In this document: positions 65 through 27,853 of the stretch, piece after piece
How positions within the stretch are numbered: position 1 is the stretch's first letter
Layout of the letters: the number at the start of each line of letters is the position of its first letter
IMG/VR virus record: IMGVR_UViG_3300021513_000001
Span: 1 to 64,000 of that record
DNA: 64,000 nucleotides
From: a virus
Strand: one strand, 5' to 3'
Made by a program: the position numbers and the translations under genes
The notes under the pieces: model-generated
Seen by the model: the letters and a program-made list of their open reading frames with translations, nothing else
Told to the model about the DNA's origin: nothing
Databases searched by the model: none

Positions 65-80
65 TGCAATTAACATGCCA
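65..80 (-). promoter_or_regulatory. sigma54-type (-24/-12) promoter TGGCATGTTAATTGCA
   Basis: GG-N10-GC spacing with TGGCAY/TTGCA boxes; intergenic; the transcript would run off the left edge of the window. Confidence 0.7.
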
Positions 81-121
81 AATATTGTCGCCTCGTATTC
101 AAAGGCTAAAGCTCCTTGGTT

Positions 122-625
122 TTACGGTAGTTTTTGATAAAATTTATATCTAAGAATTATTTCTTGAAACAAAACTTTATACAACTCATAAATTACACCA
201 GTACCGCCATTAGCTGATAAAACCGTTGCAATCTCTTTAACCTCGTAGAAAGCATCTTTTGGGCAAAATGAATTAGGAATTAACCTAACACATGGCAAAT
301 CTAACAAGTCATCCCCAACGTAAATACATTCATCAGGCATTGTACTTCTTTCTCTTAATATTTGTTTTAACATTTTCTTTTTATTTTTTGAACAATAAAA
401 TTTAAATCCTTTTTTCTTAAACACGCCTCTATTTATATGTTCTTCGCTAGACAAAATAATGATATTAAAAAATTCACGAAGCTTAGATAAAGATTTAAAA
501 TCTTTATCTAAAAAATTTTTCGATATAATACTTCCATCGCATTTATAAGCACCTTTACCGTCGGTAAACACGCCATCAACACTTAAAACTATTAATTTTA
601 TATTTGAATATTTTGTTTTATCCAT
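122..625 (-). CDS. KdsC-like HAD-superfamily phosphatase homologue (nucleophile Asp replaced by Ser)
   Basis: Motifs SVDGVFTDG, YVGDDLLD and C-terminal NGGTGVIYE match the KDO8P phosphatase family; motif I DxD reads SxD. Confidence 0.8.
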   Translation of the reverse strand: MDKTKYSNIKLIVLSVDGVFTDGKGAYKCDGSIISKNFLDKDFKSLSKLREFFNIIILSSEEHINRGVFKKKGFKFYCSKNKKKMLKQILRERSTMPDECIYVGDDLLDLPCVRLIPNSFCPKDAFYEVKEIATVLSANGGTGVIYELYKVLFQEIILRYKFYQKLP

Positions 626-958
626 TTACAAATTTAAACCTTCTAAAATCGAATAATTAACTAAAGAACAGGTTTTAAGATTTGTCAAAGTATCTGCATC
701 ATCTATGCCACAATACTGTGCCCACCCACAAGTTATAGAATCTATTATCTCGTATTTTTTTATCTTTTTATTTTTCAACCACATATAGCATAAAAATTTA
801 CCATCTTCAGCATCAAAAAATATTGTTATTACTTTTAATTGTTTAAATTCTTTTAAAAGTTTTTCAACATTTTTATTTTCTATTACTAAAAATTTAACTA
901 TGTCTTTGATAAATTCTTCTAAATCATCATACAATACTAGTTCCATAATTTGCTCCAA
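626..958 (-). CDS. hypothetical protein
   Basis: 110-aa ORF tightly packed between neighbours; true start may be the internal ATG (MELVLY). Confidence 0.6.
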   Translation of the reverse strand: MEQIMELVLYDDLEEFIKDIVKFLVIENKNVEKLLKEFKQLKVITIFFDAEDGKFLCYMWLKNKKIKKYEIIDSITCGWAQYCGIDDADTLTNLKTCSLVNYSILEGLNL

Positions 959-965
959 CCAACAA

Positions 966-1220
966 CTAAACGGTTCTTTTTCTTTTAGATGTTATTTTTT
1001 TACTAGTATTATATCTACCAGGAACAAGTTTATTCAAGCTATTAACCAATAACGTATAAACCCTATCATCTTTAGTGCTTTTTGTAACTTTTGCAATAGC
1101 CTTTAATACTGCTAAAACAGCACCAATAGTTATTGGATTGCTAGTTACGAATACACTGACATACGTAATAGCGTCTATTAAATACTGATCAACGTTTGGA
1201 ATCATTTCTGGTGTAACCAT
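966..1220 (-). CDS. small membrane protein, putative holin
   Basis: Hydrophobic segment ITYVSVFV...ITIGAVLAVLKAIA, TKSTKDD motif, basic C-terminal tail; directly downstream of the lysozyme. Confidence 0.5.
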   Translation of the reverse strand: MVTPEMIPNVDQYLIDAITYVSVFVTSNPITIGAVLAVLKAIAKVTKSTKDDRVYTLLVNSLNKLVPGRYNTSKKITSKRKRTV

Positions 1221-1225
1221 TTTTT

Positions 1226-1627
1226 TTATCTCCTATTTCCTTTCATTTTTCTTGATAATTTTCGTGCTCTTGATTTGTAGCATCTTGCCCATTGACTATC
1301 AAGCATTTCTTCTGCAGCCGCCTCAAAATTTTTAGCACGTATATATCTTATAGTTTTTTTAAACTTAAACAACCCAGCAACCCCCATTTGATATGCCATT
1401 TCTATTAATACTTCTTTGACATTTTCTGGTAAATCAGCCCAGACATTGGAAAGCCTTCTTTGTAATCTTTTTTTAATTATAGAAACTCTATTTTCAAGAA
1501 TTAACTCCGCCTCTTTTCTACTAATAGGAAGCCTACAGCCGTATCCTATAGTAAGTTTCCCTCTCACACATTTATAAGGCATTCCTCTAAAACCTTCATT
1601 TCTTTTTAAAGACTTTATTAATTCCAT
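1226..1627 (-). CDS. phage lysozyme/endolysin (T4-like, GH24)
   Basis: EGFRGMPYKC...LTIGYG N-terminal motif; LIEMAYQMGVAGLFKF; AAEEMLDSQWA. Confidence 0.9.
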   Translation of the reverse strand: MELIKSLKRNEGFRGMPYKCVRGKLTIGYGCRLPISRKEAELILENRVSIIKKRLQRRLSNVWADLPENVKEVLIEMAYQMGVAGLFKFKKTIRYIRAKNFEAAAEEMLDSQWARCYKSRARKLSRKMKGNRR

Positions 1628-1649
1628 GCAAATCTCTAACTATAATTAA

Positions 1650-2108
1650 CTATTTTCCATATTTAAAAAACACATCGGGGTGTTTAATTAAAAGAAAATT
1701 GTTTAAATTTGTCCATTTTCCGTCTATAACAATAAAAATATCTGCCAACATTCTACCATAGCGTCCGTATTTATGTTCTCTAAAAAAAAGTACAACGTGT
1801 TTATTTAAAACCAAAGTACTTGTTATTTTCTTTGCTTTTTTTCCTCTATTTATTACTTCATCTATTGTTATATTGTAAGTTTTTGCCTGTTTGTACGCCC
1901 TAGGAAACCTACGAGATTCAAAAGAATCTATAGTATTTAATCTAATTGTAGATCTGCCTCTAAATACACATTCAGCTTTAATAGTATCCCCATCTATTAC
2001 TTTTGTTACCGTACAAATATCTGCACAATCAGTACAAAGTTCTGATGAATTAGCAGGAACAACAAATAAAAACAAAACAAAAACTAATAAAATAAATATT
2101 TTTTTCAT
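1650..2108 (-). CDS. thermonuclease (SNase-like) with N-terminal signal peptide
   Basis: VIDGDT, IRLNTIDSFE and KYGRYGRMLA motifs; hydrophobic signal MKKIFILLVFVLFLFVVPANS. Confidence 0.85.
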   Translation of the reverse strand: MKKIFILLVFVLFLFVVPANSSELCTDCADICTVTKVIDGDTIKAECVFRGRSTIRLNTIDSFESRRFPRAYKQAKTYNITIDEVINRGKKAKKITSTLVLNKHVVLFFREHKYGRYGRMLADIFIVIDGKWTNLNNFLLIKHPDVFFKYGK

Positions 2109-2123
2109 GACTATTTTCTCTTA

Positions 2124-2330
2124 CTAATTAGGTTGTGTCTCAGCAAAATACGTCCCACAAATAGGGCACTCATACCATAAAACATCTACATCATCATATT
2201 TTAACACCGCATCCGGATGTGCCCAACGGCCTTTACCATCACAAGGTGTTTCTTTGGTACATATTTTTCGTTTATTTTGTTTTATTTTTTTTTTTTCATA
2301 CAAATATTTTATGCAATAATTATGCCACAT
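2124..2330 (-). CDS. small Cys-rich/Zn-ribbon protein; true start uncertain (poly-A tract)
   Basis: WYECPICG, plus C-x5-C and His; an out-of-frame ATG precedes an A12 run at 2285-2296. Confidence 0.5.
   Translation of the reverse strand: MWHNYCIKYLYEKKKIKQNKRKICTKETPCDGKGRWAHPDAVLKYDDVDVLWYECPICGTYFAETQPN
2312..2327 (-). promoter_or_regulatory. sigma54-type promoter TGGCATAATTATTGCA
   Basis: GG-N10-GC; overlaps the stop codon of the upstream GT and points at the Zn-ribbon/SNase/lysis genes. Confidence 0.7.
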
Positions 2331-3222
2331 TCTTTTTTAAAAAATCAAGAATACCGGCAACTCTAAAAGATACATCATGCTCTTTTTTACACCTGTTAGC
2401 TGCATTTACTCCTATTTCTGTTAACAGGTCTGCATTTTTTAAATAATAATTTAATTTTTCTTTTAAATCTTTTTTGTTTTTATATGTTAAAATTTCTTTA
2501 TCTTTTTCAAATACTTTAAAAACCTCATCTCTTTCTCTTGTTATAACCGGAGTAGCACAGGCTGAATACTCAAACATTCTATGTGCTAAAGGTGAAAAAA
2601 AATCCTGTATATCTAAACCTATTTTACTTCTGTTAATTACATTAAGAAATTCACTACCTGTTATTGCTTTATGTGTATAACTTGCACTAAACCATCCCGA
2701 ACCGTAAACCTGTAAATTACAACTTACAGTGTTATTTATATCTTTAACTATTTCAAGGCGTTCCTTTTTATTCTTAAATCTTGGATGTAAACCACACCCA
2801 ATTAAAGAAACATCTATATCTTTTTTTAAATATAAATTTTTGTGATACTTAAAATCACAAGCTGTTTGATTATAGTGTACTGGTATTACTGTTTTATACT
2901 TTTCAAAAGTCTCATAATGATTTGTTACATAAACGTCATAACTTTTAAATCTTTCCGAAGAAAAATAATAAGGATCACTAAAACCAAAACCAATAATTGG
3001 AATTTTAATTTGTTTTTTAATACCATAAGGAAGTACTAAACCAGAATGAGATAACCAAATTTGATCTGGGTTCAATCTATCAATTAAATTTAAAACACTT
3101 ATAATTTTACTTTTATCTACCCAAATAATATCATATCCCTTATTTTTGACTTCTTCATATATAGATCTCTTTGTACCATAAGTATTAAAGGTATATTTAT
3201 CAGTAAAATATAATATTTTCAT
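2320..3222 (-). CDS. CgeB-like GT-B glycosyltransferase
   Basis: [23 protein letters not shown] and [10 protein letters not shown] motifs; start moved to ATG 3222 (ATGA overlap with the upstream stop). Confidence 0.85.
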
Positions 3223-3704
3223 ACACGTTCTCCTATTTTCCTTACTGGATTCCCTGCCCAAATTCCATAATCAGGAATATTTTTTGTAACAACACTTCCG
3301 GCCCCTATAACACACCCATTTCCTATTTTAACACCACCACACACAACAGTATTTGCACCGATCCACACGTCACTACCTATTATAACATGTTTTGGTATAT
3401 TTTTTTGTTTCATTATAAGTTGATTAATTGCTACTCCATGATCTTGTGCATATATATGAACATTTGGACTAAATAAAACATTGTCTCCTATTTCTATTCC
3501 TCCCATACCGTGCATAACACAATAATAACCTATACTTACGTTATTACCTATGTTTATTATTCCTGTACAGGTTCTTATAACACAATTATGCATTATTCTT
3601 ACATTGTTACCAAGTATTATTTTCCCACCGTGTTCTTTAAAACCAACATAAGCATCAGGTGATATATTACAGTTATTGCCTTGAATTAAATTTGCCGTAA
3701 TCAT
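3219..3704 (-). CDS. hexapeptide-repeat (LbH) sugar O/N-acyltransferase
   Basis: IGxN hexapeptide repeats; [32 protein letters not shown]...AGNP. Confidence 0.9.
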
Positions 3705-4396
3705 TTTTTTATGTATAAATTCTCATCTATTTTTTTAAATAATTTGTTTAAAATAGTAACGCCTTCTTTTTTCCATAAACTTATCGAATGTGCAAAATGT
3801 CCAGATGATGGTTTAATTTTTCTACTCACCTCTAAAAATAATTTACCATTTTGTTTAATAGATAAGCATATCCTTTCAAATTCCTTTAAGGGGTTATAAA
3901 CATGTTCTAATACATCTGAACAAATAATTACATCATATTTGTTTTTTGGTAATACAGAATCATGATAAAACACATTGACTTTAAATCCACGTTTTTTAAT
4001 TCTTGCTCTAGCAAATTTTAATAGCGGACCTTTCACATCAAGAATATCTACATCATTTCCATTTTCCAACAAAGCAATAGCGTGTGTACCAACGCCGCTT
4101 CCAAAATCCAAACACTCTTTGTTTGACGTATCATTTATTAGTTTTTTAAGCGTCGCTCCTCTACGCATCACACTTGTAAACATCATAGTTTTTAAATATG
4201 CATCCAAATCTAAATAATTATATTCTTGATACAAAGATAAGAAATCTTTCTCTGTCTCAATAACCCCTTTTTCATTAAATATTCTAATAGAATCTGGTGT
4301 ACAAATACTAAGTTGTTGTATATAATTCAAGGGTTTATTTAATATTTCCGCCAATTCTAAATCCCTCTCTTTTTGTGTTTCTTTTAATATGGCCAT
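3701..4396 (-). CDS. class I SAM-dependent methyltransferase
   Basis: LDFGSGVG motif I; [13 protein letters not shown]. Confidence 0.9.
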
Positions 4397-4399
4397 TAT

Positions 4400-5674
4400 T
4401 TATCCTTTATTAACTTTACCTGTAGCTTGTATCCACTTTCTAAAATATTCAGATTCTTCTTGAAATTCTTCAAGACTTCTATCTCTAATTTTAATGAGGG
4501 GTTTTAATTTATTAACACCATCTGGACCAAAAAAATAAAAATTATAATCATTAAGATCTCTACTAAGAATTTCTATATTATACTTCAATGGGTTATACCA
4601 TACATCACATCCTGGAATTGGAACAAAAGAAGTACATGCAATAATATCATAAGGCACTTCCTGTAAATATTTAATATTAATAGGTACGGTGTGTTTTGTT
4701 TGACCGGGCGTTCTTATCATAAATAATATTCTTGTTTTTAAACCAACCTTAGCACATATTTCTAACGCCCTGACATTATCTTTTGCGGTAGTTTTCTTGT
4801 TTAATATTTTTAAAACATTATCATCAAAACTTTCAACACCAAAAGAAGCCTCAACACATCCAGCATCATACATAATTTTAGCCATATCTTCATCAAATGG
4901 GTTTACTCTACAAGATATTCGCCATACAACATCAAGACTTTTAATTTTTTTACACACACTTTCAACATGTTGGCGACTCGCCGTAAACATGTCGTCTGAA
5001 AACCTAAATTGTGTTATTCCAAAATTATCTATCACTTCACGCATTTCATCATATATTGATTGGGCAGTTCTATATCTTACTTTTCTATATGTGAATTTAG
5101 AAGCACAACAAAAAGCACAAGAAAAAGGACAGCCCCTTGAAGTCAAAATTATTGTACTACCACCCTCACGATAGTTTTTATTAAAGATAAAAATATTTCC
5201 GCCTTGAAAATCTAATAAATGTCTTGCTGGTAAAGGAATAGTATTAAGATCTTTTACAGGTTCCCCCTGATAAACTTGTTGTAATTTGTTTTTCTTTATA
5301 TCCTTAATAATATTTAAAATAGTTATTTCTCCCTCACCCACACAAATAGAATCTACTACTTTAAAATCTACAAACTCTTTCGATATAGTACCTGGACCAC
5401 CAAGAACTACTTTGGCATTGGGATATTTAATTTTTATCAATTTTGAAAACTCATTAGCAACAGGTAACTCAAGACAGGTAGTTGTTATTCCATACATATC
5501 TGCTTCAGAAAGATCTTCTATGGCTGTTTTCTTAGAATAAGAAGAATAATTTTTTATCTCTACGTCTATATCGTTTTGTTCTAATACTGCAGCCAAATAC
5601 ATTAACCCTAAAGGCGCTTGCGCATCGGGTTGGTTTAAAAAATCATGTGGTAAATAAATAAAAACTACTTTCAT
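4400..5674 (-). CDS. B12-binding radical SAM protein (class B methyltransferase-like)
   Basis: PLGLMYLAA/VVLGG cobalamin-binding domain; TSRGCPFSCAFC CxxxCxxC; FSDDMF; FGVES. Confidence 0.9.
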   Translation of the reverse strand: MKVVFIYLPHDFLNQPDAQAPLGLMYLAAVLEQNDIDVEIKNYSSYSKKTAIEDLSEADMYGITTTCLELPVANEFSKLIKIKYPNAKVVLGGPGTISKEFVDFKVVDSICVGEGEITILNIIKDIKKNKLQQVYQGEPVKDLNTIPLPARHLLDFQGGNIFIFNKNYREGGSTIILTSRGCPFSCAFCCASKFTYRKVRYRTAQSIYDEMREVIDNFGITQFRFSDDMFTASRQHVESVCKKIKSLDVVWRISCRVNPFDEDMAKIMYDAGCVEASFGVESFDDNVLKILNKKTTAKDNVRALEICAKVGLKTRILFMIRTPGQTKHTVPINIKYLQEVPYDIIACTSFVPIPGCDVWYNPLKYNIEILSRDLNDYNFYFFGPDGVNKLKPLIKIRDRSLEEFQEESEYFRKWIQATGKVNKG

Positions 5675-5677
5675 GTT

Positions 5678-6448
5678 TTACCTCGCTACTTTTTTAAAAG
5701 GACAAACATTATACAATCTATCTATATCTATATCAAGAACATAATCTTTAAATTTATCATAAACCTGTTGTAATGTAGTATTTTCATTAATCACTAGTGG
5801 TAACTTTTCTTCTCTGTGTACAGACTCAAAGTAATCTCTAAATTTAAAACCATTACCCTTTACCTTAGAAGACAATTCAATCCATATTGAGGGTATATTA
5901 TAAGCATCAGAGACTATGATACCGTGTAAAGAACTCGACGCTATTAACTCACAACTACAAACTTTATCAACAAAAACATTAATATCTTCCTGAATATCTA
6001 TAATTAAAATATCAGAAATTCCTCTAAATTTATTTAAAAATTCAGAATTTTTATCTATAAAATGAGGAATAACCCCCAATTTATATTTTTTCTTAACACT
6101 AACAGGTGTATAAAATCTCGGATAAAGTAAAACTGGATCACCATAAACGTTACAAGTATACCCCTGCTCTTTTAATTTTTTAATAGTAAGTGGCCCCCTT
6201 ACTGCGTAAATTTCCTTTGGTTTATATATAATTTTACTCGATTCTGTAATAAAACCAGGCCCCCATATAATAGAATAAGGATCTGCTCTTTGAAGAATAC
6301 TGCCAACTATTAAATAAACATCTTTTTTTTCAATGTTTTCAAAAGACATACCTACAGCTTTAGGTTTAATTCCTGATATGCATTCAAATAAAATAGGACC
6401 TATTTTGTCCCCCCAATTATTTAATTTACTATGATGTTTAACAAACAT
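5678..6448 (-). CDS. polysaccharide pyruvyl transferase family protein
   Basis: NWGD, GSIL, AVRGPLT, GDP, IPH and SSSLHGIIVSDAYNIP motifs. Confidence 0.9.
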   Translation of the reverse strand: MFVKHHSKLNNWGDKIGPILFECISGIKPKAVGMSFENIEKKDVYLIVGSILQRADPYSIIWGPGFITESSKIIYKPKEIYAVRGPLTIKKLKEQGYTCNVYGDPVLLYPRFYTPVSVKKKYKLGVIPHFIDKNSEFLNKFRGISDILIIDIQEDINVFVDKVCSCELIASSSLHGIIVSDAYNIPSIWIELSSKVKGNGFKFRDYFESVHREEKLPLVINENTTLQQVYDKFKDYVLDIDIDRLYNVCPFKKVAR

Positions 6449-6482
6449 TTCTATGTGTTATATCTTTATTTTATTTTTTTTT

Positions 6483-7115
6483 CTAATACTGTATAAAATT
6501 AAATTTTATTGGCTTTTTTAACCCTTTAAGCTCTAACCATTTTCTACCAATATCTTTAACAATAATATTCTTACCAACTGTTATAATATTTTTCTTAGTA
6601 AATTTTTCTGCAAACCTACTACTCCTCAACTGTACTTCAGGATTCTTACTAACATCTAATTTTCCAGCAAAAACTTTATATAAATCATATTTCCAAACAC
6701 TCGGGCTAAGGGCAAGTTTAGTATACCTAGTAGTATAGGCTCTTAAAATTACCTCCAATGCCCCCGTCTTATCAAACAAATTAAATATGTTATTAATATT
6801 TATTTTTTCAAGTAATACCCAATCATCTTCAAGCTGAAAAATATAAGGTGTTTCTGCGCTAGACCAACACCAATTAACTGCATCTGTAAAATTTGGTTGT
6901 TTAGGCAATCTATAAATTACATTATTAAAATATTTTTTTGCTACTGCTAAAGTATTTTGTTGTAATTTACTATTAGGTACAGGATCTATATTAATATATA
7001 AAATACATTTAGATATATTTATACCTTCTATATTAGTAAAAAAAGATTTATACGTCTGCTCTAATATTTCTGGTCTAGATAACGCTGTTGTCGTAAATGC
7101 CATTTTGTTACACAT
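6483..7115 (-). CDS. GT-A fold glycosyltransferase (GT2-like)
   Basis: N-terminal RPEILEQT; FQLEDDW DxD-type motif; DIGR near the C-terminus. Confidence 0.7.
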   Translation of the reverse strand: MCNKMAFTTTALSRPEILEQTYKSFFTNIEGINISKCILYINIDPVPNSKLQQNTLAVAKKYFNNVIYRLPKQPNFTDAVNWCWSSAETPYIFQLEDDWVLLEKININNIFNLFDKTGALEVILRAYTTRYTKLALSPSVWKYDLYKVFAGKLDVSKNPEVQLRSSRFAEKFTKKNIITVGKNIIVKDIGRKWLELKGLKKPIKFNFIQY

Positions 7116-8047
7116 TACATCTGCTCAATACATTTAATAAATTTTTGCATATTTGTCTTTCTATTTCCTATTTTATTAACAATAAGTTTTTGCATATTAT
7201 TAATTAACGACCAATCAGGATTTTCTATCAATTTTACTGCATTATCTAAATTACCAAATTTATATATCATAGCTGTATCACCAAAGGCATAATCTAATAC
7301 CATACCATTTGTCTTTATGTTATTACAAACAATTAAACAACCACATAATGCAGCCTCCATTGCTACATTAAAAAGACCTTCAAGTTCAGTAGGGGCAAAC
7401 CATATGTGACATGAACTGTACAAATCAACTAGTTGTTCGTGTGTAGGAGAACAAACAAAATAATCAAGAAAAGAATCTTTACGCATCTCTGTACCAAACC
7501 CTACATATTCATAATTTTTAGACCCTAACGCTTCGGCCAATTTAATAAAATCTACCCATCTTTTTGTGGGTTTTTTTTGATACAAACACCCAATTCTTAT
7601 TTTGTTTTTTGGTCTAAAATTTCTATCTTCCCACTGTTCGATATCTACTCCTTGGTGGATAACTACAGATTCGACACCAAGTTTTTTTAATTTTCTTTGT
7701 AATCCATATGAATTTGTTATATTAAACAGCCCAGAATTATAACCTGCAATTAATTCTTGTTCTTTCATTACCCAAGTCTCAAAACCTCTAATATAATAGG
7801 CTTTTTTTGGTACATTGGCTTGTAATGTGCTTTGCACTGTCGTACACGCTGTTGCTACTATGACATCCAAATTTTCTGGTATATAATTAATAACAGACTT
7901 ATGCTCAAACCACGTAAAATTGTCTACAGTTGCTACTATATCACATTTGTGGCCTAAATCTTCTAAAACTTTAGCACACATAATAGTTGTTTTCGAGCCG
8001 CCGCTATTTCCAAGTCCGCTATTTAAACAATTAAACGCCAAGTACAT
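7115..8047 (-). CDS. GT4-like glycosyltransferase
   Basis: SGGSK N-terminal motif; EGLFNVAMEAALCG (E-x7-E). Confidence 0.85.
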   Translation of the reverse strand: MYLAFNCLNSGLGNSGGSKTTIMCAKVLEDLGHKCDIVATVDNFTWFEHKSVINYIPENLDVIVATACTTVQSTLQANVPKKAYYIRGFETWVMKEQELIAGYNSGLFNITNSYGLQRKLKKLGVESVVIHQGVDIEQWEDRNFRPKNKIRIGCLYQKKPTKRWVDFIKLAEALGSKNYEYVGFGTEMRKDSFLDYFVCSPTHEQLVDLYSSCHIWFAPTELEGLFNVAMEAALCGCLIVCNNIKTNGMVLDYAFGDTAMIYKFGNLDNAVKLIENPDWSLINNMQKLIVNKIGNRKTNMQKFIKCIEQM

Positions 8048-9029
8048 TTATTTTTTCCCTTAAAAATTTAGCAGCTATTTCCAAAGAAAGATTTTCTTTA
8101 TAATACTCTCTTGGATTATATTTATTTAAATTATCAAGAACATATTGTACCGCTGTCCAAAAATTATCTTTAGTAACCAACTCGCCTGTAGCCCACCGAC
8201 TTCTCGGATTAACTAGAGAGTTTATATATTTATCCCTCCAAAATCTTACTGTATCCAATACTACTATTGGTAACCCACAGGCCAACATTTCAGCAATAAC
8301 GCGTGGACAACTGTCTATTTCAGAATCAACAGCAATAATACCCATTTTACATTTAGCTATGTGTTTTGGCATTTCTGATTTTAATACTCTATAAGATGTT
8401 ACGTTATTCGGGTATTTAAAATTACGTGGGTTATTTCCAAGATTAAGTAATGTAAACCGCGGTGGTAAGGTATTATATACAAAAGCATGTCCTTTAAAGT
8501 TTTGACTCCCGTTAGCTGGAAAACAAATATCATATTCTTTTTTTATTTCAGGATATGGATAAAATAAATTATCTGGGGCCGGTTTTATAAATAGACTGCT
8601 GGGTATTCGTGGAAATCTTTGTTTACATATTTTTAATTGTTCAATAGAATCTTGTAAAATTAAATCATAATCATAAAATCCTTGACATGGCAAATATCTT
8701 CTTCCAGCGCCATAGCGTATTTTAAAAGAAGTGGGGAATTGTTTCAATATGCTATGATATTCTTTGAAACCGCCACGACAAAAAATAACATCAGGAATAA
8801 AAACACTTTTATAGGTTTGAAAATTAGGAATCCACCTCTCCGTGAAATTAAAGGTAAATTTTTTTTCACGATTCCCGCCCCAATACCAAAGTTCTGCCTT
8901 ATCTCCTTTTTTTAATATAGAAAAAATCAATTGTGTCCAAACATCATCACAGTCTTCAATTTTATCAAATACGATTTCTTGCGGATCTCTATCTTGAGGA
9001 ACCTGGCCTCTTAGCATAAGAAAATTCAT
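8031..9029 (-). CDS. GT-B fold glycosyltransferase (GT4-like)
   Basis: KGH; DSCPRVIAEMLACGLPIVV. Confidence 0.8.
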   Translation of the reverse strand: MNFLMLRGQVPQDRDPQEIVFDKIEDCDDVWTQLIFSILKKGDKAELWYWGGNREKKFTFNFTERWIPNFQTYKSVFIPDVIFCRGGFKEYHSILKQFPTSFKIRYGAGRRYLPCQGFYDYDLILQDSIEQLKICKQRFPRIPSSLFIKPAPDNLFYPYPEIKKEYDICFPANGSQNFKGHAFVYNTLPPRFTLLNLGNNPRNFKYPNNVTSYRVLKSEMPKHIAKCKMGIIAVDSEIDSCPRVIAEMLACGLPIVVLDTVRFWRDKYINSLVNPRSRWATGELVTKDNFWTAVQYVLDNLNKYNPREYYKENLSLEIAAKFLREKINVLGV

Positions 9030-9103
9030 TTATATTTCTTCCAATCTACTAAAAAATTTTCTAACTTGCGTTTTTATATAATCTAACATGACAAATTCTC
9101 ATA

Positions 9104-9979
9104 CTAAATTATTTCTTTAACAACATTAACTATTGTTTGTGGATCTATTTCTCTACATTTCCAAATTTTACAATTTTTCCAACCACGATTACCCTGACAC
9201 GGTTGGCATTTCAAATCATTTCTTTTAATAACGGTTGAATATTTGTGAAACCTCAAATCAAAATTTTTCTTTATACTAGTTGCTGTAAAAATTACTATAT
9301 TAGGTATCTCTAAAGCATTAGCACAGTGATACATGCCACTATCATTTGAAATTAGTAACTTACTATTCTTTATTACTCCCAAAGAATCTAACAAAGATAA
9401 TCCAGTCTCATCGTATGTTCCTTTAACATACTCTTGTTTAGAACCAATAGAACATATTTTATATTTTTTATTTAATAGCTTTACTACTTTTTCATAATAA
9501 GGGTAACTTTTTATACTCCAATCAGCGCTACCGTGCGGATTGTAACCATTTGCTATTACTATGTCGTACTGTCTGTCTACTTTGTTATATAAACAATTAC
9601 CGTGCCAAATTAAATCTCTTTCTTTGACTCCCAAATCTCTCGCAATTTGCATATATGTATCTACTTCAGAGATATCCATACTTAAAGGATAAATACCTGC
9701 TAATAATTTCATTCCAATATTTAAAAAAAGTTTAACATGTCTTTGAGTCCAATATGTAGACACCATTCCTATATAATTATTAGGATTAATGTGATTAGCT
9801 TGATTACCAACATACCACTCATTAACATAAGGAATCACTTTAGGAATGAAAAAATTACCAAATACGTGATAATAATCAATATTATACCCTAAAACTTCTT
9901 TTATAGTACGAAGACATGGAATAAGTTGACAACAATTTCCTATTCCTTCGGCTGATAAAAATAATAATTTTTTATTCAT
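9104..9979 (-). CDS. GT9 (heptosyltransferase-like) glycosyltransferase
   Basis: GIGN; ISNDSGMYHCANALEIPNIVIF; C-terminal CQPC...C...C. Confidence 0.85.
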   Translation of the reverse strand: MNKKLLFLSAEGIGNCCQLIPCLRTIKEVLGYNIDYYHVFGNFFIPKVIPYVNEWYVGNQANHINPNNYIGMVSTYWTQRHVKLFLNIGMKLLAGIYPLSMDISEVDTYMQIARDLGVKERDLIWHGNCLYNKVDRQYDIVIANGYNPHGSADWSIKSYPYYEKVVKLLNKKYKICSIGSKQEYVKGTYDETGLSLLDSLGVIKNSKLLISNDSGMYHCANALEIPNIVIFTATSIKKNFDLRFHKYSTVIKRNDLKCQPCQGNRGWKNCKIWKCREIDPQTIVNVVKEII

Positions 9980-9982
9980 ATT

Positions 9983-10165
9983 TTATTTTATAATATCATT
10001 TATTTCATTAGTTATTTTTTCTAAATCTTTATCAAACAGTTTATTAAATATTTTCTTTGACATATTTTTTTTCTTGATATAATCAAGAGCTATAGATGAA
10101 GATTTAATTTTAAGTATTGTCTTTATTTTTTTTTCTATCATCTGTAAAATCCGACCAACACACAC
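9983..10165 (-). CDS. hypothetical protein (start uncertain)
   Basis: Fills a gap in the operon; overlaps the upstream ORF. Confidence 0.35.
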   Translation of the reverse strand: MCVGRILQMIEKKIKTILKIKSSSIALDYIKKKNMSKKIFNKLFDKDLEKITNEINDIIK

Positions 10166-10448
10166 CAGTTATCAACCCATCGTCTTCAATTATAAAACCC
10201 AGCCTCTCATCACATAAACAATCAGTTATAGTAGCAATTATAGACAGAGTACTAATGCCTACGTCATCATAATTAAAAACAAGATCCCCATCATTATCAC
10301 GTATAAAATAATAGGCTATACCCAATTTTTGCATATCTTTTTCTGCACTTAATAGTTTATTTTTATCCAATGCAGCATAGAATTTGTTAATGTCTTCATA
10401 ATAAATTGGTTCTGATAATTTAATCATTTTATTAATTATATTCAACAC
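10110..10448 (-). CDS. hypothetical protein
   Basis: 112-aa ORF in operon orientation. Confidence 0.6.
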   Translation of the reverse strand: MLNIINKMIKLSEPIYYEDINKFYAALDKNKLLSAEKDMQKLGIAYYFIRDNDGDLVFNYDDVGISTLSIIATITDCLCDERLGFIIEDDGLITGVCWSDFTDDRKKNKDNT

Positions 10449-10480
10449 TTCTTGTTTTCTTTTTTCAATTCTATACCCCT

Positions 10481-11263
10481 TTAATGGTAGTTTTTAATTA
10501 TTAAATGTTGATTTCCGCTATCTCCACTTATCCTACCAGAATGAATTTTAAACATATATTTCTTAAAATAAGAATCTACAATGTACCCACTATAAAGTCT
10601 TCTTATTAGTTCGCTATCGCCTATAATCATTAGACATTTGTTTTTAGTAGATTTAAATAAATCAGCTAACCTTTCTTGGTGTTCTTTACCAAACTGGCAA
10701 TAACCATAATTTTTAAATACAGAATCATATGGTGGATCTAAAAAAACAAAATTGTTTTCATCATTATATTCATTAAAAATTTTTTCAAAAGAAGCTAGTT
10801 TTACATCGGTTCGTTTTAATAATTCAGTGTATCTTGAGTCTTTTATTAATTCGTAATTTACTGTTTTATAACGCCCCCACGGTATATTAAATTTACCACT
10901 TTTATTATACCTTAGCATGCCTCTAAAAGCTGTTTTACGTAAATAAAAAAATCTACTTGCTTCTTCAATTTTAGTTTTAACATCCATTTCGTCTCTTACA
11001 AAATAATAAAAAGCCTCATCTATATCCCATTTACAAACCGTTCTATATATTTCAAGAGCGTTTCCTTCCTTAATTTGTTGATAAAAATTTATTAATTCCT
11101 CGTGCACATCAGCAATGACATTTTTTTCAAAATTTAAATCAAAAAAGACAGAACCGCCCCCAACAAAAGGTTCTATATACCTATCAAAAGTTTTTGGGTA
11201 ATGGCGACAAAAGCGAGCTATTTCTCTACTTTTGCCACCACTCCACTTAATTATCGGGTTCAA
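10481..11263 (-). CDS. DNA adenine methyltransferase (Dam/D12 class)
   Basis: KWSGGK, EPFVGGGSV, RYNKSGKFNIPWG and FLDPPY motifs. Confidence 0.92.
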   Translation of the reverse strand: MNPIIKWSGGKSREIARFCRHYPKTFDRYIEPFVGGGSVFFDLNFEKNVIADVHEELINFYQQIKEGNALEIYRTVCKWDIDEAFYYFVRDEMDVKTKIEEASRFFYLRKTAFRGMLRYNKSGKFNIPWGRYKTVNYELIKDSRYTELLKRTDVKLASFEKIFNEYNDENNFVFLDPPYDSVFKNYGYCQFGKEHQERLADLFKSTKNKCLMIIGDSELIRRLYSGYIVDSYFKKYMFKIHSGRISGDSGNQHLIIKNYH

Positions 11264-11280
11264 ATTAACAATCCTAAATG

Positions 11281-12105
11281 CTAAATAGCATATTTAATTT
11301 TTTGTTCTGATTTATCTTTGTTAAGTATACTAAAATATGTTTGTAGTAACTCATCACCCAAAGTAGCATGAAAAGCTTCCCACTCTTCTTTAGTTACATT
11401 TATATTAAAAAACTTAAAGAAATCAACATATCCAACAATATACTGCTTTTTAATAGCTTTAAAATCAGAATTTAATTTTACTATATCATCAACATGTGGA
11501 TATCTTAAAGATACAAAACTAACCTTTGTATTAATATTATTTTTATTATAAAACTTTTTTAAAGCAATACTTAAAAGATCTAATTTTTCTATTACTTTAG
11601 CTGTCTTTTCTGTATCTAAATTAAAATTATATTTAAGTTCACTAATAAAATAAGTATTATCTTTGCGTATTGCAACATCTAATTGAACAGTTCTATCTAA
11701 AAAACCTTTTATTAACGGACTAATTTCACTAGAAACATCTTCGTATTTAGACGTAAGATATTTTCTAATAGCAGATTCTACAGCATTACCAACTCTGATA
11801 AGCAATGTTTGTTTTGGAAAAAACGGAAGAGATGAAAACAAAATTTCATTTAGAGAACCTTGTTCTTTATTTGCATTTTTAATAATATTTTCTATTATTT
11901 TTTCAGATTTTACTTTATTTCTTACTTCGCTAATAATACAATTTTTAAGCTCATCGAATGATTCTTTTGGATCTTCAATATATATATCACCTATTGAACT
12001 TTCAGATTGTTGTTCTACTACCAACCTATATAATCCAACCATTCTAGAACTTAAACCCTTTAACCTTGTAAATTCATTCATAAAATCACGACCTTCAGTT
12101 TTCAT
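11281..12105 (-). CDS. putative type II restriction endonuclease (PD-(D/E)XK)
   Basis: GNAVE...LD...ISELK motif; adjacent to the MTase; start moved to ATG 12105, which has an AAGGAG SD. Confidence 0.6.
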   Translation of the reverse strand: MKTEGRDFMNEFTRLKGLSSRMVGLYRLVVEQQSESSIGDIYIEDPKESFDELKNCIISEVRNKVKSEKIIENIIKNANKEQGSLNEILFSSLPFFPKQTLLIRVGNAVESAIRKYLTSKYEDVSSEISPLIKGFLDRTVQLDVAIRKDNTYFISELKYNFNLDTEKTAKVIEKLDLLSIALKKFYNKNNINTKVSFVSLRYPHVDDIVKLNSDFKAIKKQYIVGYVDFFKFFNINVTKEEWEAFHATLGDELLQTYFSILNKDKSEQKIKYAI

Positions 12106-15060: not shown

Positions 15061-15076
15061 CGCAATTTCTATGCCA
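15061..15076 (-). promoter_or_regulatory. sigma54-type promoter TGGCATAGAAATTGCG
   Basis: GG-N10-GC; intergenic, upstream of the ORF starting at 15024. Confidence 0.7.
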
Positions 15077-15104
15077 AATCTTGAAAACTTGTATCCCCAA
15101 AATA

Positions 15105-17561
15105 TTAAATACTCACAGATTTAAACGGTTTAATTACTTCAGTATTTGTTACTGTAAACTGTGATTTAAATATATTAGATGCTTCATTAAATAAATTAAT
15201 CCATTTAGGTACAATACTACGTTCCCAGGTTAAATTATTTATAACATACTTATAAGCCGCCTCTGCTTTTTCTTTAGCCTCTTCTGGATTATTTATAACA
15301 TGATTCATAACTTTAACAAGATGATCTATATCAACTAAAGGTCTTAAAACCTCATTATCGTTTGGTAAAATAGTATATAAATTTTCATTTGTTCCTGAAT
15401 CTACCAAATAAGCTATATCATCATTTATTAATTCAGGAATCATTGTATTATTTGGCATAATAACGGGTTTTTTTGTTGCCATACCTTCAATCCAAGAGTT
15501 ATGAACTATCATATTTTCTGCTACAAAATTATTAGTATTTTCGACTTGAATATCTACAAGAGTTCCCCTATACGGAACTTTATTAATTGTTTTGATAGGC
15601 AAAAGTAAATATTTTTTATTTTGACTACATTTTTCGCCATTATATACACGATCAGAAATAATGTTAGGTTCTATATTAAACATTTTTAATAATTTTCTTT
15701 TTGAAATACCAGAAACATTTACCTTATATTCAACCCTACTAGTTCTCACAGAACTTAGTATTCCTAGCTTTGCTAAAATTAATCTAAGACCGTAAGCTAC
15801 GTGTTTTGAAGTAGTCGAAAAAGTCATCTCATAATCTGTTTTACAATAACAACCATCACCAATAAACTCACCATTAACAAATTCGATTAAATACTCTAAC
15901 GGTTGATTCAATAAAATAGATGGTATTTTTTTATTTCTAGCCCCATGATCAAACAAATTATAAAATAAATTTGCAACAACAGACGAATAAAATCTAATAG
16001 TTTGACAACCATATTTATTGCCACGACTTTTGTTATCTGTATAATAAACATTTAACCCAAAAACCTTTTTCATTTCATTCGCTACAAATTCAATTATATT
16101 TGTTTCTTTTTTATTAAAACTAAATAAAATACTATCTTTTTTAGAAGCACTAACGCACCCTTCAGCCAAATATAAACCAAATAAACGCATAAGTGTTTTT
16201 GTTATTTTTATTTTTTTAGGTATAAAAATACCAGCATTTTCAATAAAATTAGAAGTTAGCCTAAACATGTCCCCTGTTTCTTCTAAATTTAATATTTGTC
16301 TTGCGTTTAAAGTTTGTGTAACTATATCATATATATCTAATTCGCTTTTTGTTTCAAAATGTTTCTTTGGAAATAATAAATTATCTCCTATTTTTAAATT
16401 CTCAGCTTTTTTCCATATATATTCTCCATTTTCAAAAACTTTAAAACCATGCTCTGGAGAAGTTTTTAATGGTATATTAGATAACCACGTAGTTATTTCA
16501 TAAAGATCACCATCAAAATCTCTCGACATTATTGCTCGAACTTTATTATAAGTTCCGTCATCAGACAAAACTTTATCTTGTATTGTAATATCTCCAATCT
16601 CTTTAAGCCCTTCTTCCGTATATATTGTTGAATGATTACAAATACATAAACCAAAACCTTCTCCTAACGCAGTACTAACAACACAATCACAAGAATTATA
16701 CAAAATATTAACAACTGGAACAGGATATCCCTGATTTGGGCCAAAATTTTGTGGAAATACTACATCTGTTTTAGTACTTAAACCTAAAACTTCACAGACT
16801 TTATCTAATCGCCACCCCTGATCTCTTACTGCCATGTGACAATAAGCTAAAACATTCGAATTAGTTTCTTTTACTTGTTTATATGCTCTTATAAATCTTG
16901 GAATATCTTTTCTTTGTTGATTTCTATTTAAATTACAAAAAATAAACTTATCTGCTTGAGGACCAAAGTATCTTTTCCTAAAATCTACTGCTTCTTGATC
17001 CTGTCTTGGGTAAAAATCTTTATCATTAACCCCGTGATAAATAACTCTAATATTTTTTTTAGTCGCAGTATCACCAAGAGCCAATAATGTAGCATCTTTA
17101 GCAAACTGAGTATAAGCTACAGGAATATCAACCGAAGTTACTGCCTCTGCCCAAGACTTTTTAATAATAGAGTCACATGGATAATAACACAAACTAACAA
17201 ATTTCTTTCCTTGCGCTTTTAATTGCGGAATATATTCTGTAAGAAACTGCAAAATAAAAGAATCTTGCAAAAAAAACAAGATATCAAACTCCATATGTTT
17301 AGCCATTTCCATAAACTTTTTTCTTCCATAAGGATCATGCTCTGAATTTAAACCGGCAGGCCAAATATTAAACACCTGTGTTAATGGTGGAGCAGGTGAT
17401 CCCCAGTAGTTAATTGCAAAAATATCAATATCATATTTACCTGTTTCATATAGCCCTGTAAAAATATTCTTAGCCACTGTTCCAAAACCAGTCGCCACAG
17501 TAGGGCTATCGCAATAAGCCAAAATTTTTAATTTCTTTTGTTGTCTTGGTTGATTAAACAT
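15105..17561 (-). CDS. GT4 glycosyltransferase containing an intein
   Basis: TGFG, NRNQQRKD and GEGFGL/SWIEGMA motifs, split by a 383-aa intein; spliced product would be 435 aa. Confidence 0.9.
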   Translation of the reverse strand: MFNQPRQQKKLKILAYCDSPTVATGFGTVAKNIFTGLYETGKYDIDIFAINYWGSPAPPLTQVFNIWPAGLNSEHDPYGRKKFMEMAKHMEFDILFFLQDSFILQFLTEYIPQLKAQGKKFVSLCYYPCDSIIKKSWAEAVTSVDIPVAYTQFAKDATLLALGDTATKKNIRVIYHGVNDKDFYPRQDQEAVDFRKRYFGPQADKFIFCNLNRNQQRKDIPRFIRAYKQVKETNSNVLAYCHMAVRDQGWRLDKVCEVLGLSTKTDVVFPQNFGPNQGYPVPVVNILYNSCDCVVSTALGEGFGLCICNHSTIYTEEGLKEIGDITIQDKVLSDDGTYNKVRAIMSRDFDGDLYEITTWLSNIPLKTSPEHGFKVFENGEYIWKKAENLKIGDNLLFPKKHFETKSELDIYDIVTQTLNARQILNLEETGDMFRLTSNFIENAGIFIPKKIKITKTLMRLFGLYLAEGCVSASKKDSILFSFNKKETNIIEFVANEMKKVFGLNVYYTDNKSRGNKYGCQTIRFYSSVVANLFYNLFDHGARNKKIPSILLNQPLEYLIEFVNGEFIGDGCYCKTDYEMTFSTTSKHVAYGLRLILAKLGILSSVRTSRVEYKVNVSGISKRKLLKMFNIEPNIISDRVYNGEKCSQNKKYLLLPIKTINKVPYRGTLVDIQVENTNNFVAENMIVHNSWIEGMATKKPVIMPNNTMIPELINDDIAYLVDSGTNENLYTILPNDNEVLRPLVDIDHLVKVMNHVINNPEEAKEKAEAAYKYVINNLTWERSIVPKWINLFNEASNIFKSQFTVTNTEVIKPFKSVSI
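15498..16646 (-). mobile_element. intein with LAGLIDADG homing endonuclease
   Basis: Starts at Cys (CICNHSTI); block B TSPEH; LFGLYLAEG and VNGEFIGDG helices; ends VHN before extein Ser+1. Confidence 0.92.
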
Positions 17562-19945: not shown

Positions 19946-20049
19946 TAACAAGGTGTTTTTATTAACCTGTTACTAGTGCTTTTTTATTAACTTGTGTTAA
20001 CAAATGCACCGTTCTCCTTTCTTAAAGTGATATGGTCATTTCAAAAAAC
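19946..20049 (-). promoter_or_regulatory. conserved SD-hairpin leader element, copy 2 (with a second hairpin)
   Basis: Core 19977-20019; extra stem-loop 19946-19972; 9 nt to ATG 19936. Confidence 0.8.
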
Positions 20050-20088
20050 AAACAACAAACAAATACTAATACATCAAATCTACTTTAC

Positions 20089-20465: not shown

Positions 20466-20481
20466 TGCAACATCCATACCA
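20466..20481 (-). promoter_or_regulatory. sigma54-type promoter TGGTATGGATGTTGCA
   Basis: GG-N10-GC; intergenic, upstream of ssb. Confidence 0.65.
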
Positions 20482-23571: not shown

Positions 23572-24388
23572 AATCAGAATCTCCACTAACAAAACATTTA
23601 AAACGTGGAAACATTAAACTTCCATCTTTTTTTACATCCTCTGCTTCAACCACTATTTTTTTACCCAACAACTTTTCTCTATTTTTCCAAAACTCTTTTC
23701 TTTGATAATACTTCATCCCACTAACTTTTTCTATAAGACCATTAAAATTAACAGAAAAAGAACCAAGAACCCCTGATTTTCTTCCAACACCCTCATTACA
23801 AGAAACAATACTTAAATTAAAAACTTTTGTTGGTTTTTTTTCAAACCATGTATTTTCTTTATCATACAATGAATAAAACTTCTTTAATATAATACTCTCA
23901 AACCCTTCTTCTAAACAGTATTTATAAAAATCCAAAATATCCTTCTTATCTTCTAACAAAACATGATAAGCCATACTTATAAAATCAGAACGAATTAAAG
24001 ATAAAACATCTAATAATCGGTTGTACCTTTTATATAGTGGTTCTTTTACAGCAATATCTGTAATTAACTCTTCAGAATAAATTGAATCAAATATATTATA
24101 TTTTAAACTTTCTTGGTTATTTAAATCAACAGTTGTTATTTCCCCATCAAACACTAAGCCTGTATTTCCAAAATATTTATCAAGAACTTCTGTTATCCTT
24201 GGAAAAATTAACTTTTTACCTTCTTCAGAAAAAAGAAAATAGTTGCCTTCTTCTGGAATAGCAACACATCTAACACCACCAAGCCTTGGATAAACTAAAA
24301 ATTTACCGCTAGGAATCTTTTTTATAAGAACGTAAGGTTTCACAACAAACCAATTATCTCCTATTTTAACAGTATTGTTTATAAACAT
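23558..24388 (-). CDS. ATP-dependent DNA ligase homologue with degenerate active site
   Basis: Recognisable motifs I (PRLGGVR), III (FDGEI), IIIa (IFD), IV (ESIILK) and VI (SLMFPRF) plus OB domain; KxDG reads RxGG. Confidence 0.8.
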   Translation of the reverse strand: MFINNTVKIGDNWFVVKPYVLIKKIPSGKFLVYPRLGGVRCVAIPEEGNYFLFSEEGKKLIFPRITEVLDKYFGNTGLVFDGEITTVDLNNQESLKYNIFDSIYSEELITDIAVKEPLYKRYNRLLDVLSLIRSDFISMAYHVLLEDKKDILDFYKYCLEEGFESIILKKFYSLYDKENTWFEKKPTKVFNLSIVSCNEGVGRKSGVLGSFSVNFNGLIEKVSGMKYYQRKEFWKNREKLLGKKIVVEAEDVKKDGSLMFPRFKCFVSGDSDYGHK

Positions 24389-24399: not shown

Positions 24400-24415
24400 T
24401 GCAAAAATTACACCA
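24400..24415 (-). promoter_or_regulatory. sigma54-type promoter TGGTGTAATTTTTGCA
   Basis: GG-N10-GC within a 32-nt intergenic gap; predicted start site falls 1-2 nt before ATG 24388. Confidence 0.55.
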
Positions 24416-26101: not shown

Positions 26102-26624
26102 ATTTTTCTCCTAACATATCTACCAATTCAGATTTTATTTTTTCTAAATTTGGTTTTTTATATACAGCTCTTTCATATTCTACATATAAAGCTTTCCAAT
26201 CTTTTTCTGTATACCCTGTTCTTTTATTAATTTCATTTTCATCTAACGAAAGACATTTTTCTATTATCCAACTCCCTTTATTAGATGATAAAATTTTTAA
26301 TGAATCAAACCTATAATAAACACTAAAAAAATCAAGATTATCAAAAACCATATCAATAATTGTTTTACATTTAAATAAAGCTAATTTATCAGAAGCACTG
26401 CCATCATGAGACATTTGTTTTACAAACGTGTTTGCATATCCTATCTCTGCTTTCCATAAAATAGAAGAATAATCTATACCATAAAAAACACGGACCTTAC
26501 TAAAAAAATATTTTGTTAATTCTACACAATTTTTCGGTACATTTTCAATATTAAAAGGTTTATATATACAATACCCTCTTTTTTCTAAAAATTCAATACA
26601 AGTTTTTTCATCCAAAAACAACAT
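26094..26624 (-). CDS. hypothetical protein
   Basis: 176-aa ORF overlapping the recA start. Confidence 0.7.
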   Translation of the reverse strand: MLFLDEKTCIEFLEKRGYCIYKPFNIENVPKNCVELTKYFFSKVRVFYGIDYSSILWKAEIGYANTFVKQMSHDGSASDKLALFKCKTIIDMVFDNLDFFSVYYRFDSLKILSSNKGSWIIEKCLSLDENEINKRTGYTEKDWKALYVEYERAVYKKPNLEKIKSELVDMLGEKCG

Positions 26625-26647
26625 TAGTACTTATACCACCAATTAAT

Positions 26648-27739
26648 TTATTTAAGCAAAGCCATAAATGATAATTTAATTCCAGTATCATCACTAATTT
26701 TTATTATATTACCATCAAACTGTAAATTAATGTTTTCACCTTTAAACGATGAACACAGATTATATAAAAAAAGAGAATTTAAAAAAACATTAACGTTTAT
26801 TGCATTCTTGTTTAATGCCGTATCCAATTCTAAAGTTGAATCAAATCCATCAGAATTTATCTTCATCCTATTATTATTAATAGTAAGATTTACTTTATTA
26901 TCCTGCTTTCCTTTTGTATCAATATTTGCACCCCTAATAACATTTATAAAACTATTTCGATTAACATAAACACCAGAACCAACAAAATTTATTAAAGAAT
27001 CTAACGAAGGAAAAGCCAAATTTATTTTTGGAGAATAAATAACAACAGCACCAAAATCACACACAAAATAAGTAGAAGAATAACAAATATTAGCATTTTT
27101 ATCTAATAAAGAAGCGATATTAGAAATAGCTCTTGCAGTATTAGATGGAATTACAATAGAATGATCAGAAAACTGATCACTTTTTATAGTATATATACAA
27201 CATCTTACACCATCTGTTCCAGCCAATCTAAACATTTTATTTTTACTTTCAATAAGAACTCCTACGGTTTGAGCTGAATATTTTTCAGAATTATCAGCAC
27301 CTGTTGCGACAAAAGCCATCCCGTCTTTTGCAGTCGCTGGATCTATTGATGCTATTTTGTTAAAATTTTTAGCTCTTATTTTAGTTGTAGTCTTTTCAAT
27401 ATATTCCAAATAAAGATTATTTTTAATTTTATTTTTATTATTATTAACTATTTTAAAAACATTATCTTTTATTAACAAGGAACACGTGCCTTCTTTTCCA
27501 AAATTTTTAATATAACTTATATACTCTATAAATTTATTACAATCAATACAAATATCTATATTACTAGATGTATTTATAAGCGTATCTACAACCACTCTAA
27601 CTTTTTTTCCAGAAGCCATTAAAACTCTTCCATCTTTTGTATAAATATTCAACCAGTTTATATCTTTAGAAATATCAGAAAAACTAAGACATTTAGACAA
27701 TAATAACAAATTAGAAATAATGAAATCAAATTTAACCAT
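26648..27739 (-). CDS. dnaN: DNA polymerase III beta sliding clamp (divergent)
   Basis: 363 aa; GVLI...AGTDGVR; VIP; FP; N-x2-FL; C-terminal FMALLK, as in beta clamps. Confidence 0.8.
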   Translation of the reverse strand: MVKFDFIISNLLLLSKCLSFSDISKDINWLNIYTKDGRVLMASGKKVRVVVDTLINTSSNIDICIDCNKFIEYISYIKNFGKEGTCSLLIKDNVFKIVNNNKNKIKNNLYLEYIEKTTTKIRAKNFNKIASIDPATAKDGMAFVATGADNSEKYSAQTVGVLIESKNKMFRLAGTDGVRCCIYTIKSDQFSDHSIVIPSNTARAISNIASLLDKNANICYSSTYFVCDFGAVVIYSPKINLAFPSLDSLINFVGSGVYVNRNSFINVIRGANIDTKGKQDNKVNLTINNNRMKINSDGFDSTLELDTALNKNAINVNVFLNSLFLYNLCSSFKGENINLQFDGNIIKISDDTGIKLSFMALLK

Positions 27740-27747
27740 AAAACATC

Positions 27748-27793
27748 CAGTGCTTTTTTGCTAACTTATGTTAACAAATACACCACTCTCCTT
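27748..27793 (-). promoter_or_regulatory. conserved SD-hairpin leader element, copy 3
   Basis: Core 27751-27793; 8 nt from the stem base to ATG 27739. Confidence 0.8.
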
Positions 27794-27837
27794 TTTTTTT
27801 AATCAATAAAATAATAAATTTTTTTATAATTTATATA

Positions 27838-27853
27838 TGCAATATATGTGCCA
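27838..27853 (-). promoter_or_regulatory. sigma54-type promoter TGGCACATATATTGCA
   Basis: Exact TGGCAC-N5-TTGCA match at the head of the replication operon. Confidence 0.8.

Follow-up and report, generated by a model that had tools for sequence, protein, structure and literature searches.

The subject of this analysis is a 64,000-nucleotide (nt) stretch of viral DNA (the window), which comprises bases 1-64000 of the 114,332-bp IMG/VR contig IMGVR_UViG_3300021513_000001 (G000), and in particular a strictly spaced motif that recurs on its minus strand at the head of gene blocks. The two conserved parts of the motif, which hold GG and GC exactly 10 nt apart, match sigma-54 promoters characterised independently in bacteria. 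Judged from the sequence, we consider it probable that the sites are -24/-12 promoters for bacterial RNA polymerase carrying sigma-54, that they serve as the chief class of promoter in the non-structural half of the phage, and that an activator would be needed to open them.

A conserved motif with exact spacing

The six minus-strand GG-N10-GC sites listed in a preliminary description of the window are all exact (P1-P6, Table 1). Each continues as TTGC(A/G)TA and shares the orientation of its genes; five are intergenic, and the sixth (P5) overlaps the stop codon of an open reading frame (ORF). When the window was searched on both strands with the pattern TGGYRY-N5-TTGCR, six matches were returned, compared with 0.22 on average and at most 2 in dinucleotide-preserving shuffles, none of 100 of which reached six.

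G000 is linear, with 30% G+C and a CheckV completeness of 54%, and its genes lie on the minus strand nearly throughout. Metagenomic relatives of its sliding clamp are 52-70% identical to it, and the alignment of clamp relatives led to two more contigs, one viral (G001, 52 kb, clamp 58% identical) and one from a metagenome (L006, 6 kb). A 29-mer from the left end of the window found a further contig of 22.7 kb (G002), which is 99.3% identical to window positions 294-7427 and adds 15.5 kb of the same phage to the left; it was the only extension obtained by walking outward from the contig ends. The ~180 kb examined are the sum of G000 (114 kb), G001 (52 kb) and the 15.5 kb by which G002 extends the phage. 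Beyond these sequences there is also a 143-kb contig whose clamp is 99% identical. The phage family is deep-branching.

Across G000, its left extension, G001 and L006 there are 25 strong non-redundant sites (7, 4 additional, 11 and 3, respectively). The consensus of 20 aligned sites is ttTGG[C/T]A[T/C][A/G]-N4-TTGC[A/G]T, in which GG, TTGC and the following T are invariant. The GG-N10-GC arrangement is present in all 20, and further sites identified afterwards conform to it. The spacer is strict: 21 matches were found with 5 nt between the blocks, as against 0-3 with each other spacer from 2 to 9 nt.

The second point to note is where the sites lie. The motif is not equally frequent in coding DNA: with a matrix made from the 20 sites, six of the eight matches scoring at least 19 bits in G000 are intergenic, although intergenic DNA makes up only 3.0% of the bases (binomial P ~2e-8), and in G001 the figure is 10 of 11 (P ~1e-12). 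The two remaining matches in G000 are the one overlapping a stop codon and one (692-712) inside a small ORF. The G001 set consists of nine pattern matches on the coding strand, one on the plus strand before plus-strand genes, and a matrix match at 36,644; a reversed control pattern gave zero matches in that contig. All four strong sites added by G002 are intergenic and co-oriented with their genes, and one of the three in L006 lies on the opposite strand, co-oriented with a divergent giant gene. Thus, site orientation tracks the genes at the strand switches in G001, G002 and L006.

The sites are also conserved by position. Orthologous places are occupied by the sites that precede the ligase-like, clamp-loader and clamp genes and by the one that follows the primase gene, and the two conserved blocks persist in a phage with a clamp only 58% identical, whereas the spacers and flanks have diverged.

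The preliminary description had confined the class to the replication and glycosylation arm and had seen no site in the gaps of the structural arm. Inside the window, sites are indeed absent from the gaps of the giant-gene block, but a seventh site lies just outside the window, upstream of that block, and others would drive a transfer-messenger RNA (tmRNA), so the class is not limited in this way. No site was found in the structural module (71-114 kb), which should therefore use another promoter class. In the divergent gap at the right end of G000 (contig 113638-113700) there is a TTGTTT-17 nt-TATAAT arrangement, which could plausibly serve the structural module as a housekeeping-type promoter and hints at such a second class.

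Sigma-54 as the probable reader, and the alternatives

The comparison with known sigma-54 promoters was made with a matrix built solely from eight lacZ-validated Bacillus thuringiensis promoters (PMC4428206), which include TTGGCATACATTTTGCA and TTGGTACGTATTTTGCA, and thus contained no phage sites. With this matrix, motif sites were six of the top seven positions in G000 and all of the top nine in G001. The phage sites scored 16-22 bits, overlapping the 19-24 bits of the Bacillus promoters themselves, and at a threshold of 14 bits there were 11 matches in each of G000 and G001, as against 1.4 and 0.6 in shuffles. The consensus for Clostridiales is TTGGCATNNNNNTTGCT (PMC6615313). As a sequence, the phage consensus is indistinguishable from Firmicutes-type sigma-54 promoters and agrees with them in every feature tested. 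The T at -21 would lend it a Firmicutes-like flavour and does not fix the host.

As in bacterial -24/-12 promoters of the Firmicutes type, GG and GC are 10 nt apart within TTGGCA(T/C)-N5-TTGC(A/T), and the sites lie upstream of genes and co-oriented with them, with scores on the independent matrix that overlap those of validated promoters. They differ in having no enhancer-binding protein gene nearby and no shared upstream activator sequence. Whilst the bacterial promoters drive nitrogen, carbon and envelope operons, those of the phage would drive replication genes, a glycan cluster and tmRNA.

From these likenesses we infer a conventional sigma-54 mode of action. The sigma factor would most likely come from the host, and each site would hold a closed complex until an ATP-driven activator opened it, and RNA synthesis would begin ~12 nt past the GC. 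This activator might be an enhancer-binding protein of the host that needs no common enhancer and acts, for example, from solution, or a phage factor of unrecognised kind. Besides the genes for replication and recombination and the glycan cluster, the promoters would serve a nuclease, a Clp-type ATPase and tmRNA, and probably a small structured RNA as well.

Among bacterial routes of transcription, sigma-54 is the one that remains completely silent until an ATPase triggers it, and descriptions of it in phages are very few. The preliminary description had called its use unusual for phages, which holds in that the parts of the literature available to us yielded a single sigma-54-type phage promoter; it is, however, not without precedent, that promoter being in Pseudomonas phage YuA (Ceyssens et al. 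2008, cited in bioRxiv 10.1101/2023.10.13.562163). The YuA promoter relies on the host factor, as those described here would, but it is the only one of its kind among sigma-70-like and phage-specific promoters, whereas here there are at least 11 strong sites, and at least 11 in the relative, forming the dominant class of the non-structural half. For a Pectobacterium phage there is a weak prediction of a sigma-54-like protein. If the present sites are read as we suggest, phage development may be tied to the signalling state of the host, or an activator or bypass factor of novel type may be concealed in the phage; a further possibility is a phage polymerase that copies the host promoter code. 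In any case, the motif is of practical use for marking out transcription units when phages of this family are annotated.

Several observations weigh against sigma-54 as the reader. Pfam searches of G000, G001 and G002 gave no Sigma54_DBD match and no true Sigma54_activat protein, and a six-frame regular-expression search of G000 and G001 found neither an RpoN box nor GAFTGA in any frame. The idea of a phage-encoded RpoN or activator, put forward in the preliminary description, is therefore not borne out in the ~180 kb of phage plus relative; of the transcription class proposed there, what has held is that the motif is real, conserved, placed as a promoter and matched to the Firmicutes-type consensus. 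Within 260 nt upstream of the 20 sites no k-mer was clearly enriched, the best corrected P of ~0.03 being helped by overlapping and orthologous windows. Because no upstream element is shared over this distance, the canonical enhancer architecture is missing. In addition, the genome is incomplete by the CheckV estimate given above, the phage carries a two-barrel RNA-polymerase-like domain of its own, and the host was not fixed by clamp, tmRNA, tblastn or protein-atlas searches.

These host searches can be summarised briefly. Alignment of the clamp found no relative among 185,579 species genomes. The 3'-end pattern of the tmRNA occurs in many phyla, and the remainder of the molecule had no match among the 120 recovered loci. 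The helicase, PolA and recombinase gave only ~30% identity in tblastn, to phages of many different hosts, and the protein atlas gave no host signal. The motif itself offers a clue, in that the host should carry rpoN.

The sole Sigma54_activat (PF00158) match, a 642/649-aa protein, was rejected: it is really AAA_2 plus ClpB_D2-small, which makes it an unfoldase of the Clp type; it has a GYV pore loop, and its sequence lacks GAFTGA. No Sigma70_r2 domain was found in G000 or G001.

The polymerase-like domain supplies the most serious competing reader, one that the preliminary description had not considered. It lies in a 5563-aa ORF of the structural module, which has NADLDGDEINVH at aa 1692 (a beta'-like catalytic motif, also given as YAQNADLDGDEINVH) and GTKMTTHYGSKGVV near aa 810, resembling the beta-subunit catalytic motif. 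The PF00623 match in this ORF scores 24.5 bits alone and 26.2 bits with neighbouring matches in frame, and the domain has no relative among the solved structures, cultured phages or viral contigs searched. It is therefore probable that the phage has a polymerase of its own, which it either delivers or makes. The motif could then be the promoter of this two-barrel enzyme, delivered with the DNA for the transcription of early and middle genes, or of a second enzyme encoded in the missing part of the genome, and its likeness to sigma-54 promoters would be coincidence or mimicry. We think this unlikely, though worth serious attention. The beta'/beta-like motifs, the PF00623 match and the PhageMin_Tail domain of the giant ORF speak for it, as do the early or middle type of the genes behind the motif, the lack of any site in the structural module that encodes the polymerase, and the lack of an encoded activator in the sequence examined. 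Against this, an unrelated enzyme would have to arrive by chance at all twelve conserved sigma-54 positions with the exact spacing; a promoter specific to such a polymerase should be unlike the consensus of a host sigma factor, and the motif is the same as the sigma-54 consensus of host type. At least 11 promoters, scattered along more than 85 kb, would depend on a small number of injected molecules, and there is no second polymerase-like locus in the ~180 kb. To our knowledge, minimal two-barrel enzymes also lack the surfaces that bind sigma-54.

Polymerase-based programmes are known from the N4 virion polymerase, the virion and non-virion multisubunit polymerases of phiKZ/AR9 and gp66 of crAss-like phages, and we know of no promoter of these enzymes that resembles -24/-12 elements. 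The present phage is like them in having a two-barrel polymerase-like domain in a virion-type protein, which makes a multi-stage programme with a delivered polymerase plausible; it is unlike them in that its motif equals the consensus of a host sigma factor. The nearest characterised type, YonO of SPbeta, has no defined promoter (PMC5467207) and thus provides no positive link to the motif.

A bolder version of the sigma-54 reading combines the two. The whole non-structural programme, with at least 11 promoters and with replication genes and tmRNA among its targets, would run on host sigma-54 without a canonical enhancer-binding protein or enhancer, through a phage-encoded activator or bypass factor of unrecognised kind. 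It would be staged with a polymerase delivered by the tail, in that the injected polymerase would act before sigma-54 and the virion genes would belong to another class. We regard this fuller scheme as doubtful, a little more so than the phage-polymerase promoter.

An improbable alternative is that TGGCA and TTGCA, repeated with an 11-bp periodicity, form a direct-repeat site that is recognised by an activator of the phage or the host and takes the place of the -35 element in a housekeeping-sigma promoter, much as PhoB boxes and the T4 MotA box do. The half-sites are alike (tGGCA and tTGCA), a TAnAAT-like hexamer follows the window sites, and the downstream columns are mildly enriched in A/T. 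However, the -10-like hexamer is not conserved in G001 and would abut the box directly, there is no conserved hexamer 16-18 nt from TTGGCA, no helix-turn-helix or winged-helix regulator was present among the proteins scanned, and the full agreement with the sigma-54 consensus would be left without explanation. The T4 middle promoters, in which a MotA box is coupled to appropriation of sigma by AsiA, are likewise a phage class for replication-type genes with an upstream box in place of the -35 element. T4, in contrast, keeps the sigma-70 -10 element and encodes MotA and AsiA, whereas here no conserved -10 element and no MotA- or AsiA-like factor was found.

A plain housekeeping-sigma reading was rejected as well. 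The TAnAAT tail that follows TTGCA in the window looks like a -10 element and is not kept in G001, and the invariant TTGC would lie unexplained in the would-be spacer. Sigma-70-type matches are not enriched (98, as against 89 +/- 9.7 expected). Function at the RNA level was rejected by inspection, the two blocks not being complementary and the spacer varying freely.

Least likely of all, in our estimate, sigma-54 holoenzyme binds the sites without firing, so that they act as docking sites, roadblocks, insulators or a means of sequestering host polymerase. One study describes stable closed complexes of the holoenzyme without activator and many silent sites in Escherichia coli (PMC4591121), and neither activator nor enhancer was found in the sequence examined; yet a roadblock or decoy needs no particular orientation, and every strong site points with its downstream genes, across strand switches too, heads a gene block and, in two phages, stands at a fixed short distance before the tmRNA gene.

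Sites and the genes behind them

Under the sigma-54 reading, the non-structural genes of the window fall into five blocks (Table 1), which we infer from position and orientation alone. P1 would head the block from the clamp to a 76-aa gene, P2 that from the ligase-like gene to the primase, P3 that from the 111-aa gene to an 818-aa glycosyltransferase, P4 the glycan cluster and P5 the run from nuclease to phosphatase. Shine-Dalgarno cores are frequent.

Table 1. Candidate promoter sites and associated features; positions are those of the window or, past its end, of contig G000, unless a locus is named
Feature	Sequence	Position	Strand	Context
P1	TGGCACATATATTGCA	27838..27853	-	217-nt divergent gap, 100 nt before sliding-clamp gene; 24.6 bits
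Degenerate distal site	ATGGCACGCCTTTTGTA	27942..27958	-	GT replaces GC at -12; 15.7 bits with the independent B. thuringiensis matrix
P2	TGGTGTAATTTTTGCA	24400..24415	-	32-nt gap before ligase-like gene, DnaB helicase and primase; 19.5 bits
P3	TGGTATGGATGTTGCA	20466..20481	-	Between primase gene and 111-aa gene; 24.9 bits
P4	TGGCATAGAAATTGCG	15061..15076	-	38 nt before 75-aa gene; 28.2 bits
P5	TGGCATAATTATTGCA	2312..2327	-	Overlaps stop codon of glycosyltransferase ORF 2320-3261; 26.2 bits
P6	TGGCATGTTAATTGCA	65..80	-	Reads out of the left end of the window; 25.4 bits
Possible internal site	TGTGGCATAGATGATGCAGAT	692..712	-	ATGC replaces TTGC; 19.5 bits
Seventh site	TGGCACAGAAAATGCATA	contig 71225-71242	-	359-nt gap upstream of giant-gene block
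Genes putatively behind P1-P5		122..27739	-	Clamp, UvsX-like recombinase, ligase-like, DnaB helicase, primase, exonuclease, glycan cluster, nuclease, phosphatase
Replication/recombination and glycan-modification genes		1-27.7 kb	mainly -	Gene calls, family matches
Giant ORFs with LamG-type domains and papain-like protease		27.9-70.9 kb		Family matches
Structural module, including 5563-aa ORF with tape-measure domain		71-114 kb		Family matches nearly nil
5563-aa giant ORF		contig 89369-106060 (locus L003 369-17060)	-	RNA-polymerase-like motifs and PhageMin_Tail tape-measure domain
tmRNA		L132 (G002) 6558-6883; L007 (G001) 5560-5886	-	Rfam RF00023
Intein-bearing DNA polymerase		L007 (G001) 9198-13343; L132 (G002) 10286-14425	-	
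Repeated leader element, copies		window 14573-14796, 19952-20088, 27740-27800; contig 83763-83953, 84660-84838, 114007-114332		

P1 is the second-best match of the independent sigma-54 matrix, and its orthologous site is kept in L006. In the same region the degenerate distal site overlaps the start codon of a divergent 1529-aa gene and aligns with a perfect site, TGGCACACCTCTTGCATA, at the equivalent place in L006.

The ortholog of P2 is the site before the G001 ligase gene. The ligase-like ORF has its ATG only 13 nt past the -12 C of P2 (window 24343-24388), and an in-frame GTG follows GGAGA 15 codons downstream, so that either the mRNA is nearly leaderless or the downstream GTG is the true start. 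The ligase-like protein is 276 aa long in the window, compared with 429 aa for its G001 ortholog.

P3, which also has an orthologous site in G001, stands before a block that holds an exonuclease in addition to the glycosyltransferase. P4 heads the glycan-modification cluster (2320-15024), with its glycosyl-, methyl- and pyruvyl-transferases, and its promoter cassette and upstream flank recur at contig 71227 and L006 44. The shared flank, GATAYARG..TTTCAAGATT, extends over window 15078-15100, contig 71245-71290 and L006 60-100, and is preceded by a G+C-rich hairpin. Flank and hairpin together suggest a mobile or duplicated terminator-plus-promoter cassette.

P5 heads the block at 122-2300, which includes genes for an SNase-like nuclease and a KdsC-like phosphatase. 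Within it, the site at 692..712 lies inside ORF 626-958, upstream of the KdsC-like gene, and is kept in G002; whether it functions as an internal promoter is uncertain.

P6 is the top match of the independent sigma-54 matrix. Its cassette precedes the clamp-loader and PolA genes in G002, where a 100%-identical copy (97 nt) precedes the Clp-type AAA+ gene. This cassette of ~100 nt, made up of the promoter and a 5' leader, is thus found at window 1-103 and at 5543-5639 and 15489-15591 of the G002 locus L132. The contig that contains the window ends inside the repeat, which probably explains the assembly break. Other sites in G002 and G001 precede a Rad52-like gene and a UDG gene. A weaker site with GT at -12 is present at contig 70,961-70,981, after the terminator that follows the seventh site.

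RNA elements

Both G002 and G001 contain a tmRNA gene (Rfam RF00023; 101 and 86 bits), which was missed by ARAGORN. Its 5' end lies 21 nt (G002) and 25 nt (G001) past the -12 C of a site, a distance that fits a short precursor leader. The tmRNA gene adjoins the Clp-type AAA+ gene, whose product has a novel 340-aa N-terminal domain, and the tag frame in G001 apparently ends in ALVA. No tRNA genes were found in any locus examined.

The seventh site is followed by a structured RNA of ~235 nt (contig 70975-71216, minus strand), which ends in a strong intrinsic terminator and has a minimum free energy of -54.5 kcal/mol (z = -2.5). No Rfam family matches it, and it may act as a small RNA or as a leader subject to regulation.

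Besides the promoter motif there is a second, separate family of conserved non-coding DNA, a leader with the Shine-Dalgarno sequence AAAGGAGAGTGGTG followed by the conserved hairpin TTGTTAAC..GTTAACAA, placed before distant start codons; the longer copies (~130-170 nt) also contain a terminator-like hairpin. The family A DNA polymerase is split by an intein with a LAGLIDADG endonuclease domain.

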